From a virus: 12,366 bases of DNA. Below, one piece after another: positions 2,903-9,275 of this stretch. Numbering within the stretch: position 1 is the stretch's first letter; the number at the start of each line of letters is the position of its first letter. A model generated the notes under the pieces. It had not been told where the DNA came from. It did no database searches and was given only the letters and a program-made list of their open reading frames with translations. The stretch is from UHGV virus genome UHGV-0221207; one strand, written 5' to 3'. The translations under genes were made by a program, and so were the position numbers.

Positions 2903-3797
2903 CCTTTCGCAGTTGCCTGCGCCGCAGATTGTGGATGTGCCGGACTTTGAGACGCTGCTTGCCGAACGCAAGGCAGAATTTGTGGCGCTTCATCCGAAAG
3001 ATGAGCAGGAAGCAGTGATCCGCACGCTGGAACTGGAATCTGAACCCGTCACCAAATTGTTGCAGGAGAATGCTTACCGTGAGTTGCTTCTGCGCCAGCG
3101 CATTAACGAAGCCGCGCAGGCGGTGATGGTGGCTTATGCCATAGGGGGCGATCTGGACCAGCTCGCCGCCAACTACAACGTGAAACGCCTGACGGTGACG
3201 CCTGCTGATAATGACGCTGTGCCGCCCGTTGCAGCTGTGATGGAAAGCGATGAAGCGTTACGCCTGCGTGTGCCTGCAGCCTTTGAAGGGCTTTCAGTTG
3301 CGGGGCCAACTGCAGCTTATGAATTTCATGCCCGAAGCGCCGACGGTCGGGTGGCGGATGCCAGTGCAACCAGCCCAGCACCTGCAGAGGTGGTGCTGAC
3401 TGTCCTTAGCCGCGAAGGCGATGGAACTGCAGAAAAAGACCTGCTGGACGTGGTGGAAAAAGCTCTGAACAGTGAGAACGTCCGCCCGGTGGCTGACCGT
3501 CTTACGGTTCGCAGCGCAGAAATCATCCCGTATCGCGTGGAAGCCACCATTTTTCTCTATCCGGGACCGGAAGCAGAGCCGGTAATGGCAGCGGCAAAAG
3601 CCAGTCTGCAGAAGTACATTGCCAGCCAGACGAGGCTTGGTCGGGATATTCGCCGTAGCGCCATCTTTGCTGCTCTGCATGTTGAGGGTGTTCAACGTGT
3701 GGAACTGGCTTCTCCGCTGGCGGATGTGGTCCTGAACAAAACACAGGCGGCATCATGTACGCAGTGGAGCGTAACCAACGGAGGAACGGATGAATAG
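2889..3797 (+). CDS. J: Baseplate protein J
   Basis: Internal ATG at 2889 gives MAVIDLSQLPAPQIVDVPDFETLLAERKAEF..., 302 aa, the same length as P2 gpJ as recalled. The track ORF from 2850 is an in-frame upstream extension. TAG at 3795-3797 overlaps the I start. Confidence 0.85.
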   Translation: MAVIDLSQLPAPQIVDVPDFETLLAERKAEFVALHPKDEQEAVIRTLELESEPVTKLLQENAYRELLLRQRINEAAQAVMVAYAIGGDLDQLAANYNVKRLTVTPADNDAVPPVAAVMESDEALRLRVPAAFEGLSVAGPTAAYEFHARSADGRVADASATSPAPAEVVLTVLSREGDGTAEKDLLDVVEKALNSENVRPVADRLTVRSAEIIPYRVEATIFLYPGPEAEPVMAAAKASLQKYIASQTRLGRDIRRSAIFAALHVEGVQRVELASPLADVVLNKTQAASCTQWSVTNGGTDE

Positions 3798-4395
3798 TCT
3801 GCTGCCACCGGGTTCAACTTCACTGGAGCGCCGACTGGCGCAAACCTGTAGCGGGATTTCTGATCTGCAGGTGCCGCTGCGTGACTTGTGGAATCCGGCT
3901 ACCTGTCCGGTCAGCTTCCTGCCTTATCTCGCCTGGGCGTTCTCTGTGGATCGCTGGGACGAGGGCTGGACAGAAAGCGTCAAACGCCAGGTAGTGAAGG
4001 ATGCTTTTTATATTCATCAGCATAAAGGAACTACCAGTGCCGTGCGGCGGGTGGTGGAACCGTTCGGATTCCTGATCCGCATTATTGAGTGGTGGCAGAC
4101 CGGAGAAACACCGGGCACGTTTCGCCTGGATATCGGCGTGCAGGACCAGGGCATCACTGAAGATACCTATCTGGAACTTGAGCGGCTGATAAGCGATGCC
4201 AAACCATGTAGCCGTCACATGATCGGCATGTCCATCAATCTGCAGACCAGCGGTCCGCATTGGGTGGGGGCCGCCAGCTATCTTGGCGAAGAAATCACGA
4301 TCTATCCGTATATCAACGAAACAATTATTTCCGGCGGCACCGCGCATGAAGGCGGGGCGGTCCATGTTATTGACACAATGAGAGTGAATCCATGA
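3790..4395 (+). CDS. I: Baseplate protein I (tail-fibre attachment)
   Basis: Motifs LWNPATCPVSFLPYLAWAFSVDRWDEGW, RRVVEPFGFL and GTFRLDIGV parallel P2 gpI as recalled. ATG overlaps the J stop, and TGA at 4393-4395 overlaps the H start. Confidence 0.8.
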   Translation: MNSLLPPGSTSLERRLAQTCSGISDLQVPLRDLWNPATCPVSFLPYLAWAFSVDRWDEGWTESVKRQVVKDAFYIHQHKGTTSAVRRVVEPFGFLIRIIEWWQTGETPGTFRLDIGVQDQGITEDTYLELERLISDAKPCSRHMIGMSINLQTSGPHWVGAASYLGEEITIYPYINETIISGGTAHEGGAVHVIDTMRVNP

Positions 4396-5798
4396 GCACA
4401 AAATTTTATACCCTGCTGACGGATATTGGCGCGGCGAAACTTGCCAGCGCCGCCGCGCTCGGTGTGCCGCTAAAAATTACCCATATGGCGGTGGGCGATG
4501 GCGGCGGAACATTGCCAACGCCGGACGCCAAGCAGACAGCATTGGTAAATGAGAAACGCCGGGCTGCGCTGAATATGCTCTATATCGACCCGCAGAACAG
4601 CAGCCAGATTATTGCTGAACAGGTGATCCCTGAAAACGAGGGCGGTTGGTGGATACGTGAAGTGGGCCTGTTTGATGAGTCCGGGGCATTGATTGCCGTG
4701 GGCAACTGCCCGGAAAGCTATAAGCCGCAACTGGCTGAAGGCAGCGGGCGTACCCAGACCGTGCGCATGGTGCTGATTACCAGCAGCACGGACAATATCA
4801 CCCTGAAAATCGACCCTGCCGTAGTGCTGGCAACCCGCAAGTATGTGGATGACAAGGTACTGGAGCTGAAGGTGTACGTGGATGATCAGATGGCAAAACA
4901 TCTTGCCGCACCGGACCCGCATTCACAGTATGCACCCAAAGAAAGTCCGACGTTTACCGGGACACCAAAAGCGCCAACTCCAGCGGCAGGGAATAACACC
5001 ACGCAGGTTGCGACCACCGCGTTTGTTCAGGCGGCACTGACGGCTCTTATTAATGGTGCGCCAGCCACGCTGGACACGCTGAAAGAAATAGCCGCAGCCA
5101 TTAACAATGATCCGAATTTCAGTACCACCATTAACAATGCGCTGGCACTGAAAGCGCCGTTGTCGAGTCCGGCACTCACCGGAACGCCAACAGCCCCCAC
5201 TGCTGCACAGTCGGTCAACAATACACAGATTGCCACCACGGCTTTTGTGAAATCGGCGATTGCAGCAATGGTAGGTTCTGCACCTGCGGCACTGGATACA
5301 CTGAACGAACTGGCGTCGGCGTTGGGGAATGATCCGAACTTTGCCACGACAATGCTTAATGCGCTGGCAGGTAAACAACCGCTGGACAATACGCTGACTA
5401 ATTTGAGTGGAAAGGATGTCGCTGGTCTTCTCGCATACCTTGGTTTGGGAGAAGCGGCGAAAAGGGATGTGGGCACAGGAGATAATCAGATACCGGATAT
5501 GGGAGCATTCGCTTCTGGTTCGGGATGGTTCAGGCTACCAGGTGGATATATTGTTCAGTTTGGCACTTTTTCAGGAAACACGACCCGCTTTATCAGTGGA
5601 CACTTCCCTATACCATTCCCTAATCAGCCGATGGTTTCAGTCAGTGTTATGTCTGATGCCGTTCAGTCAGACCCGTCGAATCCTGCCACGCAGGTTTTGT
5701 CTGTAAATTTTGAACATATCAGTAATTCAGCGTGGCGTGTGGCAACCAGTGATATCTCACAGCAATACAGATTCAGTTATATTTCGATAGGACGGTAG
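4392..5798 (+). CDS. H: Tail fibre protein H, current orientation (constant N-terminal ~350 aa plus variable C-terminal receptor-binding end)
   Basis: N-terminus MSTKFYTLLTDIGAAKLASAAALGVPLKITHMAVGDGGG... is the conserved P2-H/Mu-S type fibre N-domain. A tandem shaft repeat follows. The reading frame crosses the inversion crossover site at the GLGE codons (about 5440). TAG at 5796-5798. Confidence 0.85.
   Translation: MSTKFYTLLTDIGAAKLASAAALGVPLKITHMAVGDGGGTLPTPDAKQTALVNEKRRAALNMLYIDPQNSSQIIAEQVIPENEGGWWIREVGLFDESGALIAVGNCPESYKPQLAEGSGRTQTVRMVLITSSTDNITLKIDPAVVLATRKYVDDKVLELKVYVDDQMAKHLAAPDPHSQYAPKESPTFTGTPKAPTPAAGNNTTQVATTAFVQAALTALINGAPATLDTLKEIAAAINNDPNFSTTINNALALKAPLSSPALTGTPTAPTAAQSVNNTQIATTAFVKSAIAAMVGSAPAALDTLNELASALGNDPNFATTMLNALAGKQPLDNTLTNLSGKDVAGLLAYLGLGEAAKRDVGTGDNQIPDMGAFASGSGWFRLPGGYIVQFGTFSGNTTRFISGHFPIPFPNQPMVSVSVMSDAVQSDPSNPATQVLSVNFEHISNSAWRVATSDISQQYRFSYISIGR
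4944..5387 (+). repeat. Tandem in-frame repeat (2 x ~222 bp, ~74 aa units) in the fibre shaft
   Basis: Unit 1 SPTFTGTPKAPTPAAGNNTTQVATTAFVQAAL...NDPNFSTTINNALALKAP and unit 2 SPALTGTPTAPTAAQSVNNTQIATTAFVKSAI...NDPNFATTMLNALAGKQP align colinearly with many identities. Confidence 0.7.
5428..5453. repeat. Left inversion crossover site (gix/hix-like 26-bp imperfect palindrome)
   Basis: TTCTCGCATACC-TT-GGTTTGGGAGAA. The half-sites resemble the Gin/Hin consensus (TTATCnAAAACC / GGTTTnnGGATAA). The right half is identical to the inverted partner at 7313-7338. Confidence 0.75.
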
Positions 5799-5800
5799 AA

Positions 5801-6241
5801 ATGCAGAAATATATTTTCAGTGCCGATAAAAATGCGTTTTTCCCTGTGGAGCTTAAAATCGCTTATCAGGAATCCGGCGAATGGCCCGATGATGGAATCG
5901 AAATTGACGACACTGTTGCCGCCGAATTTATGAAGGAAGCACCAGAAGGAAAATACAGAGGTGTCATCGACGGAATGCCTGCATGGATTGATATTCCACC
6001 GCCAACTCATGAGGAACAAATTGCCGCAGCCGAATTGGAAAAGCAGCAATTGATTAATCAGGTCAACGAATACATAAACAGTAAGCAATGGCCTGGTAAA
6101 GCGGCGATTGGTCGTCTGAAAGGTGAGGAACTGGCGCAATATAATTTATGGCTAGATTATCTGGACGCACTGGAACTGGTTGATTCCTCCAGTGCTCCAG
6201 ATATTGAATGGCCTACGCCTCCGGCAGTTCAGGCCAGATGA
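5801..6241 (+). CDS. G: Tail fibre assembly chaperone (Tfa) G
   Basis: 146-aa ORF starting 3 nt after the H stop. C-terminal tail ...LDYLDALELVDSSSAPDIEWPTPP is Tfa-like. Position matches P2 G. Confidence 0.8.
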   Translation: MQKYIFSADKNAFFPVELKIAYQESGEWPDDGIEIDDTVAAEFMKEAPEGKYRGVIDGMPAWIDIPPPTHEEQIAAAELEKQQLINQVNEYINSKQWPGKAAIGRLKGEELAQYNLWLDYLDALELVDSSSAPDIEWPTPPAVQAR

Positions 6242-6815
6242 CATCCGGTGCGGTGCTGGTATCTGTTGCCGTCACCGCGTCAATGTAATCCAGCACGGCG
6301 TTAAGTCGGGTGTTTTCTGGCTGCGTCAGCTTCCGCCCGGCCCGTAATTTCAGTTGAATCAGACTGATGGAAGCCATTGCAGCATCAATCAGCGACTGGC
6401 GCTGTGCTTCTGCCGCGTCTACTGCGGCACTATGCTGTGCCTCAGTATCTGTCACCCATTTCTCACCATTCCATTCATCGTATGGCGTTAACGGGGCGAT
6501 AGTGGTTGTATTTTCAGGATAATCACCCGGAGCTGTGATTTCTTTCGATTCTCCTGTTTCGGTGCTATAGACGATTTCACCGCGATGGTCTGGCACATAT
6601 TCCCATGAATTTAAATCTACAGAGCGACAGATTGCATAACCAGCTTTATGTGTACCTGGTGCATCCAAACAAGAACATGCCGGAATACCGACGCCGACAG
6701 CGAGATATTCAGTTGATGTAGAAATATATTCACGCGTTTCACCATCATAGTTATAAACAGTAATATTTCCTGCCTGGGTGGCGATAAACTCGTTATTTAA
6801 TACGGCGTAATCCAT
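6213..6815 (-). CDS. Alternative tail fibre assembly chaperone (Tfa'), silent in this orientation
   Basis: 200-aa ORF. Its C-terminus ...LDYIDAVTATDTSTAPDVIWPELPEA parallels that of G. Its start overlaps the stop of the alternative fibre end (TAATG). It converges on G with a 29-bp overlap. Confidence 0.75.
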   Translation of the reverse strand: MDYAVLNNEFIATQAGNITVYNYDGETREYISTSTEYLAVGVGIPACSCLDAPGTHKAGYAICRSVDLNSWEYVPDHRGEIVYSTETGESKEITAPGDYPENTTTIAPLTPYDEWNGEKWVTDTEAQHSAAVDAAEAQRQSLIDAAMASISLIQLKLRAGRKLTQPENTRLNAVLDYIDAVTATDTSTAPDVIWPELPEA

Positions 6816-7366
6816 TATGCAGCCCTCACGATATACGCAAATGCCAGGTTCCGTGGTCTGGTTTCTTTAATTAAAGAGGAGGCATCAGGTGAACTCACTG
6901 ATTCAGCACCATTTCTTCCACCAGTTGTATAAGTAAAAACTCTTTCACTGTTAGACCAGTAATCCACACCAACTGTTTTTGCTGATGAAAAAATGGTTTC
7001 ATCAGATATAACCTGTTCTATTCCATACGGGATATTAGTAACTGACCCCACTTTTGTAGGTATTCCATGATTATGAGAAATTACTGCATGCTCTTGATTC
7101 GTTAATAAAGTACGACCGCTATCCACTCCACGCCCGTCATCCCAGCCACGAATAAATTCACCGCGTAAATCAGGCAATTTATTTGTCGGATAAACCTTTG
7201 CCAGTTCCGGGTATTCTTCAGCAGAAAAAGCCGCACCGTTGCATTTCAGCCAGCCAGTAGGCGGTGTGGCTGAAGGCCACGGAACAGGCACACCAACGGG
7301 TAATGCCGAACCTTCTCCCAAACCAACATTTATGAAAATGCAGAGATAACGGCTAACTGGCATCAT
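6815..7366 (-). CDS. Alternative tail-fibre C-terminal cassette (H'), promoterless; joins the H N-terminus only after inversion
   Basis: The frame reads ...INVGLGEGSALPVGVPVPWPSATPPTGWLKCNGAAFSAEEYPELAKVYP... and ends ...NLAFAYIVRAA, resembling the C-terminal end of P2 H / Mu S type fibres. The GLGE codons coincide with the crossover site. The first ~13 codons (7327-7366) lie outside the segment and are probably not a genuine N-terminus. Confidence 0.7.
   Translation of the reverse strand: MMPVSRYLCIFINVGLGEGSALPVGVPVPWPSATPPTGWLKCNGAAFSAEEYPELAKVYPTNKLPDLRGEFIRGWDDGRGVDSGRTLLTNQEHAVISHNHGIPTKVGSVTNIPYGIEQVISDETIFSSAKTVGVDYWSNSERVFTYTTGGRNGAESVSSPDASSLIKETRPRNLAFAYIVRAA
7313..7338. repeat. 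Right inversion crossover site (inverted partner of 5428-5453)
   Basis: Top strand TTCTCCCAAACC-AA-CATTTATGAAAA. Its reverse complement TTTTCATAAATG-TT-GGTTTGGGAGAA shares 15 contiguous nt (TTGGTTTGGGAGAAG) with the left site in inverted orientation. Confidence 0.75.
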
Positions 7367-7387
7367 CTCCGGTTTTTATTCAGGGGG

Positions 7388-7960
7388 ATGATCATGCTTA
7401 TTGGCTATGTACGCGTGTCAACAAATGACCAGAACACCGATTTGCAACGTAATGCACTGAACTGCGCGGGATGTGAGCGGATTTTTGAGGATAAAATCAG
7501 TGGCACTAAGTCCGACAGACCGGGGCTGAAAAAGCTGCTCAGGACACTATCGGCAGGAGACACGCTGGTTGTCTGGAAGCTGGACAGGTTGGGGCGCAGT
7601 ATGCGGCATCTTGTTACGCTGATAGAGGAGTTGCGCCAGCGTGGTGTGAATTTCCGAAGCCTGACTGACAGTATTGATACCAGTACCCCAATGGGCCGTT
7701 TCTTTTTTCATGTCATGGGTGCCCTGGCTGAAATGGAACGCGAACTGATAGTTGAACGTACCAGGGCAGGGCTGGCTGCAGCTCGTGCCAAAGGCAGAGT
7801 AGGTGGACGCCGTCCTAAGTTGACCACCGAACAGTGGGCACAGATTGGGCGTTTACTCGAGGCCGGAGAATCAAGACAGCGTATTGCACTGATTTTTGAT
7901 GTGGGTGTTTCCACAATTTATAGAAAATTTCCGGCAAATAAGAGTAATGAATCCCCCTGA
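7388..7960 (+). CDS. Serine DNA invertase (Gin/Hin/Cin/Pin family)
   Basis: MLIGYVRVSTNDQNTDLQRNAL...VVWKLDRLGRSM...FRSLTDSIDTSTPMGRFFFHVMGALAEMERELI...GRRPKL... is near-identical in motif content to Gin/Hin as recalled, including the catalytic Ser in RVSTNDQ and a C-terminal helix-turn-helix. The start is probably the second ATG at 7394. The gene begins ~50 bp beyond the right crossover site. Confidence 0.9.
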   Translation: MIMLIGYVRVSTNDQNTDLQRNALNCAGCERIFEDKISGTKSDRPGLKKLLRTLSAGDTLVVWKLDRLGRSMRHLVTLIEELRQRGVNFRSLTDSIDTSTPMGRFFFHVMGALAEMERELIVERTRAGLAAARAKGRVGGRRPKLTTEQWAQIGRLLEAGESRQRIALIFDVGVSTIYRKFPANKSNESP

Positions 7961-8008
7961 ATCAGCATTATTTTGATTATCCCTGCAAGTAGACAAATAC
8001 CGTCATTT

Positions 8009-8026
8009 TGTGTGAATAACGGTACA
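8009..8026 (+). promoter_or_regulatory. Probable P2-type late promoter activator site (TGT-N12-ACA) for the FI operon
   Basis: TGT 8009-8011, 12-nt spacer, ACA 8024-8026, centred ~85 nt upstream of the FI ATG. A CACAAT -10-like hexamer lies about 25 nt downstream and AGGAGG at 8088-8093. Confidence 0.4.
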
Positions 8027-8102
8027 ACTGCGCTTAGCTGTTTGTCAGGCACAATCACTTCAACATAGGGCGAAGCCTAATCCAATCAGGAGGTTCGCCA
8101 CT

Positions 8103-9275
8103 ATGGCTCAGGATTACCACCACGGGGTGCGCGTTGTTGAAGTCAACGAAGGCACCCGATCCATTACCACGGTGAGCACCGCCATCGTGGGCATGGTCTG
8201 CACGGGCGATGATGCCGATGCAAAAATGTTTCCTCTTAACAAACCTGTGCTGATCACTGATGTGCTGACTGCCAGCGGTAAAGCGGGTGAGTCCGGCACG
8301 CTGGCCCGTTCGCTGGATGCCATCGCTGACCAGGCAAAACCCGTGACCGTTGTTGTGCGTGTGCCGCAGGGTGAAACGGAAGAAGAAACCACGACCAATA
8401 TCATCGGCGCAGTGACTGCTGAAGGTAAAAAAACAGGCATGAAAGCTCTGTTATCTGCCCAGTCACAGCTCGGCGTTAAACCGCGCATTCTCGGCGTGCC
8501 AGGTCACGATAACAAAGCCGTTGCGACTGAGTTGCTGAGCGTGGCGCAAAGCCTGCGTGGGTTTGCTTACCTGTCAGCGTATGGCTGCAAGACGGTACAG
8601 GAGGCGATCACTTACCGTGAAAACTTCAGCCAGCGCGAAGGAATGCTGATCTGGCCCGACTTTACTGGCTGGGACACGGTGCTGAATGCCGAAGCAACGG
8701 CATATGCCACCGCCCGTGCACTTGGTCTGCGTGCCAAAATTGATGAGCAGACCGGGTGGCACAAAAGCCTGTCCAACGTGGGCGTGAACGGTGTCACCGG
8801 AATTTCTGCAGATGTGTTCTGGGATCTGCAGGACCCGGCAACCGATGCAGGTCTGCTGAACCAGAACGACGTCACCACGCTTGTGCGTAAAGACGGTTTC
8901 CGCTTCTGGGGTTCCCGCTGTCTGAGCGATGATCCGCTTTTTGCCTTCGAAAACTACACCCGCACGGCGCAGGTGCTGACGGACACAATGGCAGAAGCAC
9001 ACATGTGGGCGGTGGATAAACCGCTTAACCCGTCGCTGGCCCGCGACATTATCGAAGGTATCCGCGCCAAAATACGCAGCCTGGTCAGTCAGGGCTATCT
9101 CATTGGTGGTGATTGCTGGCTGGATGAGTCGGTGAACGACAAAGACACGCTGAAAGCCGGAAAACTCACCATCGACTATGACTACACGCCAGTGCCGCCA
9201 CTTGAAAATCTGATGCTGCGCCAGCGCATCACCGATCAGTACCTGGTGAATTTCGCCAGCCAGGTCAGCGCGTAA
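8103..9275 (+). CDS. FI: Contractile tail sheath protein FI
   Basis: [33 protein letters not shown]... and ...[21 protein letters not shown]... parallel P2 gpFI as recalled. 390 aa. Strong RBS. Confidence 0.9.

Follow-up and report, generated by a model that had tools for sequence, protein, structure and literature searches.

In P2-like phages, the interval between tail genes G and FI varies in content. In the window analyzed here (the whole 12,366-nt stretch of viral DNA under study), it holds a serine recombinase gene, a reverse-strand fiber gene end, and a second chaperone gene, which raises the question of whether this locus is a switch that exchanges the receptor-binding end of the tail fiber and whether this particular copy can still invert. 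We conclude, with a probability of about 0.88, that it is a two-state invertible tail fiber cassette of the Pin/Gin type (Din family), carried by a P2-like prophage in the G-FI interval. A first-pass annotation had proposed a Gin/Hin-type invertible tail fiber switch, and this proposal is supported by the crossover sites, an intact invertase, a predicted enhancer, an in-frame swap of fiber ends, and both orientations among relatives. The nearest relative of the invertase, however, is Pin of e14 (85% identity) and not Gin or Hin.

Tail genes and the two fiber ends

The tail genes follow the P2-like (Peduoviridae) order V-W-J-I-H-G, a variable interval, and then FI-FII-E-T, as judged from Tail_P2_I, tail-collar fiber N-terminus, and sheath domains and from DNA similarity to P2 J/I, H, and FI/FII. 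P2 shares the synteny of I-H-G, variable interval, and FI-FII-E-T, with 64 to 74% DNA identity in the conserved genes, but it has a fixed 669-aa H, a single G, and the reverse-strand gene fun(Z) between G and FI, without an invertase. Late-promoter-like TGT-N12-ACA motifs, which we take to be the consensus of P2 late-promoter activator sites, occur at 1904 and 8009. The second (8009-8026, + strand) precedes the sheath gene FI (8103-9275) and marks where the inserted module ends on the right; in the P2 annotation, too, FI is preceded by an activator binding site. On the P2 map, fun(Z) occupies the G-FI interval and orf30 the S-V interval, which confirms the position of Z/fun given in the first-pass annotation. 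Its further statement that both classic P2 variable loci lie in the window holds for the Z/fun interval, but the second interval here is the orf30 locus (S-V). The classic P2 pair is old/tin and Z/fun (bioRxiv 10.1101/2024.10.15.618418), and the old/tin interval, flanked by gene A and the portal gene, falls outside the tail-gene window.

As it now stands, the H open reading frame covers 4392-5798 (468 aa). Residues 1 to 150 match PF12571 (E 2.6e-65), and the constant part (4392-5441, + strand) supplies the 354-aa prefix, ending in ...AYLGLGE, that is common to the two fiber forms constructed in silico. Past GLGE follow the 114 aa of the currently expressed variable end, here referred to as end A (5442-5798, + strand), with a gp53-like C-terminal domain (PF21882, Gp53-like_C, on H residues 381 to 468). 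In relatives with the opposite orientation, end A is the silent "gp53-like domain-containing protein" adjoining the invertase. The tail fiber assembly chaperone of end A (5801-6241, + strand; 146 aa; PF02413, E 2.5e-34; phrog_188) is P2 G/TfaP-like and matches e14 TfaP at 69 of 123 aligned residues. The chaperone of end B (6213-6815, - strand; 200 aa; PF02413, E 8.9e-32; phrog_105) is TfaE-like and identical to e14 TfaE at 179 of its 200 residues. The two genes are convergent, overlap by 29 nt, and both encode Caudo_TAP proteins, in agreement with the earlier description of two convergent Tfa genes between the sites.

The silent end B (6815-7324, - strand) contributes 165 aa past GLGE and contains a Collar domain (PF07484, E 4e-15); over the first 92 aa, it has 66% identity to e14 StfE. 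Mechanically, its open reading frame reaches an ATG at 7366, beyond the crossover site, which is not a real start of end B. When the segment is inverted in silico, the 354-aa part of H is joined in frame to the 165-aa end B, giving a 519-aa protein with its own Tfa directly next to it. This form, together with the TfaE-like gene, supports the proposal that inversion swaps the end of H along with its matching chaperone.

Crossover sites, invertase, and predicted enhancer

A scan of positions 4000 to 9000 yielded a sole perfect inverted repeat of at least 15 nt, in which 5440-5454 pairs with 7312-7326 (TTGGTTTGGGAGAAG); by our own estimate, about 0.07 perfect 15-nt inverted repeats would be expected by chance in 12.4 kb. 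The repeat marks two 26-bp sites of 12-2-12 layout in inverted orientation. The left, pixL-like site (5428-5453) reads TTCTCGCATACC TT GGTTTGGGAGAA, with the crossover dinucleotide TT at 5440-5441, and the right, pixR-like site (7313-7338) reads TTCTCCCAAACC AA CATTTATGAAAA, with AA at 7325-7326; the two cores are mutual reverse complements, and the inner half-sites are identical. The left site is palindromic at 10 of 12 positions and the right at 7 of 12 only. Both match the dix consensus and pixL/pixR, with one departure from consensus, G16 to A, at 7328. Of its 26 positions, the right site shares 25 with published pixR, and the left differs from e14 pixL at 3 of 26. No third site or half-site was found in a search of the whole window, and an ideal palindrome with up to 3 mismatches allowed had zero matches in 200 shuffles. 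The codons for G-L-G-E (GGT TTG GGA GAA) lie under both sites, as H residues 351 to 354 on the left and as the start of the reverse-strand fiber end on the right. These codon positions bear out the earlier placement of both sites at GLGE; the two inverted 26-bp sites and their shared 15-nt core are likewise present as first described, except that the coordinates given for the core were one off.

The gene for a Din-family serine DNA invertase (7394-7960, + strand) is intact and full length, encoding 188 aa. Its mechanical open reading frame begins at 7388, two codons earlier, but the start is probably at 7394 because the homologous start MLIGYVRVS is found there. This places the gene 55 bp past the right site, close to the ~50 bp first estimated. 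The protein comprises a Resolvase domain (residues 5 to 137, E 2.3e-53) and an HTH_7 domain (residues 140 to 183), belongs to phrog_125 (DNA invertase, E 1.4e-101), and over residues 1 to 184 matches the Gin crystal structure 3UJ3 end to end (E 7.9e-93). Identity is 85% to e14 Pin, 77% to Cin of P1, and 73 to 74% to Gin of Mu. Inactivating changes, named in the first-pass annotation as evidence that would count against a switch, do not appear: Ser9, Arg7, Asp64, Arg65, and Arg68 are kept, as is every column invariant in Pin, Gin, and Cin. Residue 114 is the wild-type methionine, where the crystallized Gin chains have valine. A simple scan found no sigma-70-like promoter for the gene.

A Fis-binding enhancer had been suggested for the 5' part of the invertase gene, and a candidate pair of sites is indeed found there. 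The predicted recombinational enhancer (7412-7483) lies inside the gene and contains two Fis-type sites, at 7416-7430 (TGTCAACAAATGACC) and 7464-7478 (GCGCGGGATGTGAGC), 48 bp apart from center to center. The degenerate pattern used in this search is said to stem from work by Hübner and Arber in 1989. Since about 0.7 such pairs per window are expected by chance, the weight rests on position and not on mere occurrence: the interval corresponds to nucleotides 19 to 90 of the coding sequence, which are annotated as the enhancer in P1 cin, and pin, gin, and cin carry the pair at the same coding positions (23 and 71) as the window. The midpoint of the enhancer is 121.5 bp from the center of the right site, versus 120.5 bp in Mu and e14. 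The interval matches pin at 63, gin at 52, and cin at 56 of 72 positions, above the whole-gene identities, a conservation confounded by coding constraint, as the interval encodes VSTNDQ...CAGCE.

In the mechanism that we propose, invertase dimers would bind both 26-bp sites and assemble with host Fis on the enhancer that lies within the invertase gene's first 90 nt; Ser9 would then cut both sites at the central TT/AA, and the 1,885-bp segment from 5441 to 7325 would invert. In the orientation of the window, the late V-operon transcript would yield H with the gp53-like end (468 aa) and the chaperone encoded at 5801-6241. After inversion, it would yield the 354-aa constant part with the collar-type end (519 aa), followed by the TfaE-like chaperone, and a lysogen population would be expected to release virions of two receptor specificities. 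For the window's copy, both Fis dependence and the rate of inversion are what we infer, and by analogy with Mu and P1 the two fiber ends would confer different host ranges.

Orientations among relatives and the right-site variant

The window itself is a single sequence in which a single orientation is visible. Related E. coli prophages are ~96% identical and carry the same gene set; no identical public record was found, the best full-length match being 96.2%. Among complete E. coli records with at least 80% coverage, 26 are in the orientation of the window and 29 agree with the inverted construct; the annotations of many E. coli genomes already include near-identical copies in either orientation. 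In one relative (L001), the switches in collinearity fall exactly on 5437-5454 and 7312-7326, and several relatives have their breakpoints at the cores. The assembly of one isolate, strain 13P477T, contains both orientations: the flanks of its two copies are 100% identical over 2,685 and 4,609 nt, and the 1,848-nt middle is inverted and 99.95% identical.

The sole doubt about the activity of the window's copy is a rare G-to-A change in the right site, whose presence had been reported correctly but whose variant at 7328 had been overlooked. At this position, G is found in published pixR and in all 63 E. coli records that are otherwise identical. The base falls at position 3 of its half-site, where 19 of the 20 half-sites compared (from Mu, P1, e14, and relatives) have C, and the catalytic domain of Gin specifically recognizes positions 3 and 2 (PMC3985619). 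Because position 2 of the same half-site is already off consensus as well, inversion in the window's copy may, judged from these bases, be slow or absent.

The strongest alternative is accordingly a locked or crippled switch, of Pin type by descent, in which the change at 7328 stops useful inversion and the phage is fixed in its gp53-like form. Besides the conservation of position 3, it can draw on the rarity of the variant, which at 100% identity is absent from 1,186 matching E. coli records and is also missing from the genome_contigs collection (one genome per species, 185,579 species). We nevertheless consider it unlikely. Functional natural sites can depart from consensus at this position, as hixR does with GG as its bases 3-2 (Table 3, PMC3241671). 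The A variant was seen in four metagenome contigs, of which one (L015) is of the window's own lineage, so it is not a private sequencing error. In another lineage (L014, L016, and L017), the A-variant site has an identical outer flank of 203 nt; on its inner side, L017 has a collar-type end, and L014 and L016 have a gp53-like one. Exchange at the site leaves such a pattern, although the contigs are mosaics rather than clean mutual inversions.

Scarcely credible is the remaining alternative, that the repeat is not a recombination target, the orientations being products of homologous recombination or assembly artifacts and the recombinase serving, for example, in resolution: the perfect repeat is just 15 nt long and the window shows one orientation, but RecA-dependent exchange is inefficient over a repeat as short as 15 nt, and this alternative has against it the 26-bp match to published pix sites in the correct 12-2-12 layout, an enzyme 85% identical to Pin, the exact breaks at the cores in several relatives, and fiber end and chaperone pairs arranged as in Mu, P1, and e14.

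If the locus is a two-state Pin/Gin-type cassette, the open reading frame at 6815-7366, called "tail fiber protein" by pipelines, represents the silent alternative end of H, a gene that has two products. A lysogen would be expected to release two receptor-binding forms, which bears on host range prediction and on tailocin or phage engineering. The rare G-to-A change also provides a small natural test of position 3 in a pix-type half-site. Beyond correct annotation, the locus has little importance: the arrangement is common and not peculiar to this phage, and the literature already describes the module type, its location in the Z/fun hotspot, and its inversion in P2-like prophages. Inversion in e14 gives rise to a chimeric protein, StfE2, that prevents adsorption of T2 (PMC12529663). 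By analogy, it is conceivable, if very doubtful, that the flip might serve the lysogen too, through collar-ended H', if leakily expressed from the prophage, masking outer membrane receptors against other phages, and that the invertase might also flip pix-type segments of other prophages in the same cell.

Comparison with known invertible segments

Among the closest known systems is the e14 P segment (pixL/pixR, stfP-tfaP/tfaE-stfE, and pinE), which has the same layout of constant part, site, end A, Tfa, reversed Tfa, reversed end B, site, and invertase. DNA identity is 83 to 87% across 6086-6866 and 7085-7855, the two elements have the same inner half-sites, and the distance from enhancer to site agrees within 1 bp. 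In contrast to the complete P2-like tail gene cluster of the window, e14 is a defective lambdoid remnant. It has no match to the gp53-like end A, its distal collar end diverges, its segment measures 1,797 bp versus 1,885 bp, and the window has A instead of G at 7328.

The Mu G segment with Gin and the P1 C segment with Cin share the mechanism class, the S/U-S'/U' logic, the Fis site pair at equal coding positions, and 26-bp sites with the same half-site pattern, whereas their fiber ends and chaperones are only distantly related to those of the window. The central dinucleotide is TT/AA in the window, cix, and pix but TC/GA in gix. P1 has its invertase gene at the opposite side of the segment, with the enhancer ~510 bp from the nearest site.

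Invertible segments are also found in P2-like elements of the same phage family, including Salmonella Fels-2 (fin), EPEC E2348/69, and Escherichia phages Cartapus, pro483, and 500465-1, all with an invertase and alternative fiber ends adjoining the tail fiber genes. Phage records carry a DNA invertase annotation with two Tfa genes. We verified the G-FI placement of the module in E. coli prophages; it has also been stated for P2-like phages, in whose Z/fun hotspot invertases are frequent (bioRxiv 10.1101/2024.10.15.618418). Tail fiber inversion linked to fin has been described for Fels-2 (PMC7953296), and a single study documented inversion by sequencing in EPEC P2-like prophages and by PCR in e14 (PMC4272514). 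Most close relatives differ from the window in a distal collar patch (6869-7107). With its three sites, one EPEC prophage has four states (PMC4272514), whereas the window has two sites and two states.

Layout of the fibre cassette and its crossover sites

The window is the tail-gene cluster of a P2-like prophage. Gene identities were assigned by family scans, which place a P2 gpI-type protein at 3790-4395 and, at 4392-5798, the tail fibre gene H, with a tail-collar fibre N-terminal domain and a gp53-like C-terminal domain. Next come two chaperone genes of the lambda-gpK/Tfa type that converge, at 5801-6241 (plus strand) and 6213-6815 (minus strand). A phage tail collar domain was found in an ORF on the minus strand (6815-7366), and resolvase and HTH_7 domains in the gene at 7388-7960; the tail sheath gene occupies 8103-9275. 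No NCBIfam model reached its cut-off for the invertase or either chaperone. TGT-N12-ACA motifs precede the V operon (1904-1921) and FI (8009-8026), matching the places of the P2 late-promoter activator binding sites.

On the P2 map, fun(Z) lies between G and FI, as the first-pass annotation had stated, and orf30 lies between S and V. Its remark that both classic P2 variable loci fall in the window was imprecise, considering that the classic pair in P2-like phages is old/tin and Z/fun (bioRxiv 10.1101/2024.10.15.618418): the Z/fun interval is present, but the old/tin interval, between gene A and the portal gene, lies beyond the window. The S-V interval is present, and the 189-aa ORF encoded there on the minus strand (1342-1911) bears no relation to P2 Orf30; its sole match is PHROG family phrog_18838, of unknown function, with none in Pfam, NCBIfam, or PADLOC.

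Within 4000-9000, the sole perfect inverted repeat of at least 15 nt is TTGGTTTGGGAGAAG, at 5440-5454 paired with 7312-7326. It belongs to two 26-bp sites, the left one (5428-5453) reading TTCTCGCATACC-TT-GGTTTGGGAGAA and the right one (7313-7338) reading TTCTCCCAAACC-AA-CATTTATGAAAA; their inner half-sites are identical and their outer half-sites differ. A scan of the whole window with the ideal palindrome (≤7 mismatches) returned these two sites only, and 200 shuffles gave no match at ≤3 mismatches. The same scan recovered the annotated boundaries of the Mu G segment and both e14 P-segment sites. We rejected a multi-site shufflon of the Min or EPEC type because the window contains no third site and, by scanning, no extra half-site.

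To follow the reading frame, we cut both sites in silico within the central dinucleotide and turned round the intervening 1,885 bp (5441-7325). H stays open after this inversion: its first 354 residues, to LGLGE, are unaltered, and a collar-type end of 165 residues takes the place of the gp53-like end of 114 residues; the stop codon of the resulting 519-aa product overlaps the start of the TfaE-like chaperone gene. Since H remains in frame with the collar end, the minus-strand ORF at 6815-7366, annotated by pipelines as a tail-fibre protein in its own right, is the silent alternative end of H. Its ATG at 7366 is not a real start and lies outside the invertible segment, and no sigma-70-like promoter for the silent end emerged from a simple scan. 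The distal part of this end (6869-7107) does not align with those of L001 and L002, the two closest E. coli prophage relatives, with flanks 93-97% identical on both sides, and aligns throughout with a third (PEC1011); this is a mosaic patch at the tip that presumably binds the receptor.

The invertase and its predicted enhancer

The mechanical ORF start of the invertase gene is ATG 7388, and homology to Pin, Gin, and Cin together with RefSeq annotation of relatives (567-nt genes) points to ATG 7394. From this start (MLIGYVRVS...), the protein has 188 aa and aligns end to end with the chains of the Gin crystal structure (E value of 7.9e-93), with identities of 85% to e14 Pin, 73-74% to Mu Gin, and 77% to P1 Cin. 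No residue that Pin, Gin, and Cin have in common is lost, Ser9 included, and the wild-type Met is present at position 114, where the crystallised Gin chains have Val. The gene has no frameshift or premature stop, so the inactivating changes that the first-pass annotation had named as grounds against a working switch are not found. A simple scan for sigma-70-like promoters returned none for this gene. ATG 7394 is preceded, 6 nt upstream, by a GGGGGA run, and a weak terminator-like hairpin followed by a T-run (7355-7374, plus strand) separates the gene from the right crossover site.

The Cin enhancer is annotated in the P1 record at nt 19 to 90 of cin, equivalent to 7412-7483 in the window. We scanned for enhancers with the older degenerate Fis pattern, KNNYRNNWNNYRNNM; in a literature search for such strings, only the later form GNtYAaWWWtTRaNC turned up. 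The interval contains two 15-bp matches (7416-7430 and 7464-7478) spaced exactly 48 bp apart, and pinE, gin, and cin each have this pair too, likewise at coding positions 23 and 71. Because about 0.7 such pairs are expected by chance in a sequence of the window's size, and one other pair is indeed present at 1030, the case for the predicted enhancer lies in its homologous position and not in the mere occurrence of a pair. Identity over the 72 bp is 63/72 with pin, 52/72 with gin, and 56/72 with cin, above the whole-gene values of 78%, 68%, and 70%, respectively. The predicted enhancer's midpoint lies 121.5 bp from the center of the right site; the corresponding distance, computed from coordinates, is 120.5 bp in both Mu and e14. 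Fis would be expected to bind at 7416-7430 and 7464-7478.

Both orientations among relatives and a variant base in the right site

We queried 5,426 complete E. coli genomes with the 3.5-kb region and then with its in silico inverted version. At a coverage of at least 80%, 26 records matched the window orientation and 29 matched the inverted construct, all at about 90-97% identity. In one inverted relative (L001), the sequence is collinear with the window up to 5454 and again from 7312, while 5437-7326 aligns in reverse, placing the switch points exactly at the shared cores. In this relative, H carries the collar end, and the recombinase has a silent "gp53-like domain-containing protein" as its neighbor. 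Among records otherwise identical to the window at the right junction, both kinds of neighbor occur in comparable numbers.

The strongest case is E. coli 13P477T, a single assembly that holds the same P2-like prophage in both orientations (records L010, NZ_CP019275.1; L011, NZ_CP019274.1; L012, NZ_CP019279.1; and L013, NZ_CP019273.1). The flanks are 100% identical over 2,685 and 4,609 nt, and the 1,848-nt segment between them is 99.95% identical and inverted. A circular "plasmid" record of 37.4 kb, resembling an excised phage genome, holds one of the two forms. In the compared copies, the invertase encoded by this prophage is identically damaged, with a deletion of 8 bp and a premature stop; presumably, then, a different Din invertase acting in trans carried out the inversion. 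Members of this family are well known to complement one another.

The one real caveat is that the right site of the window copy may be dead. It differs by one base from published pixR (TTCTCCCAAACC AA CGTTTATGAAAA), with A in place of G at 7328. Over 7312-7420, no E. coli record is 100% identical to the window, and the 63 that are identical except at 7328 all have G, like pixR; an exact scan of genome_contigs, with one genome for each of 185,579 species, gave no match to the A-variant right site. Within its half-site, the change replaces C by T at position 3, beside a position 2 at which G already stands in for C. Of the 20 half-sites from Mu, P1, e14, L001, and the window, 19 have C at position 3, and the Gin catalytic domain is reported to recognize positions 3 and 2 specifically (PMC3985619). 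However, natural hixR has GG at these two positions (PMC3241671), and the A variant recurs in four metagenome contigs (L014 to L017). One of them, L015, shares the window's lineage and orientation, which speaks against an error private to this sequence. In another lineage, 203 nt of outer flank are identical next to the A-variant site, whose inner side is collar-type in L017 versus gp53-like in L014 and L016. We rejected these three as one element in opposite orientations, as only the 203 nt outward from the core are common and the rest is mosaic; in L016, no left site was found in the 11 kb examined. Because the three are mosaics rather than clean inversions, their support for inversion at the A-variant site is moderate. 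Overall, we consider that the window copy probably still inverts, with a probability of roughly 0.8 to 0.85.

Relation to known inversion systems

The sites, genes, and invertase described in the first-pass annotation are all present, and its interpretation as a Gin/Hin-type tail-fibre switch is supported by the sites, the reading frame, the intact invertase, the predicted enhancer, and the occurrence of both orientations in relatives. In layout, the module corresponds to the P segment of e14, the G segment of Mu, and the C segment of P1; in sequence, it is closest to Pin and e14. Among P2-like elements, both orientations were shown by sequencing for two prophages of EPEC E2348/69, one of which has three sites (PMC4272514), and in Fels-2 a tail-fibre inversion is linked to fin (PMC7953296). 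According to a survey of P2-like hotspots, the Z/fun hotspot often encodes a DNA invertase, with inversion of adjacent genes (bioRxiv 10.1101/2024.10.15.618418). Phage isolates such as Cartapus, pro483, and 500465-1 have the invertase and both chaperones annotated, and a match to the right junction occurs in 1,173 of the 5,426 complete E. coli genomes. Given these published P2-like cases and the frequent matches in E. coli, the module, its position, and its behavior are already known, and the window holds one more copy, 96% identical to annotated ones.
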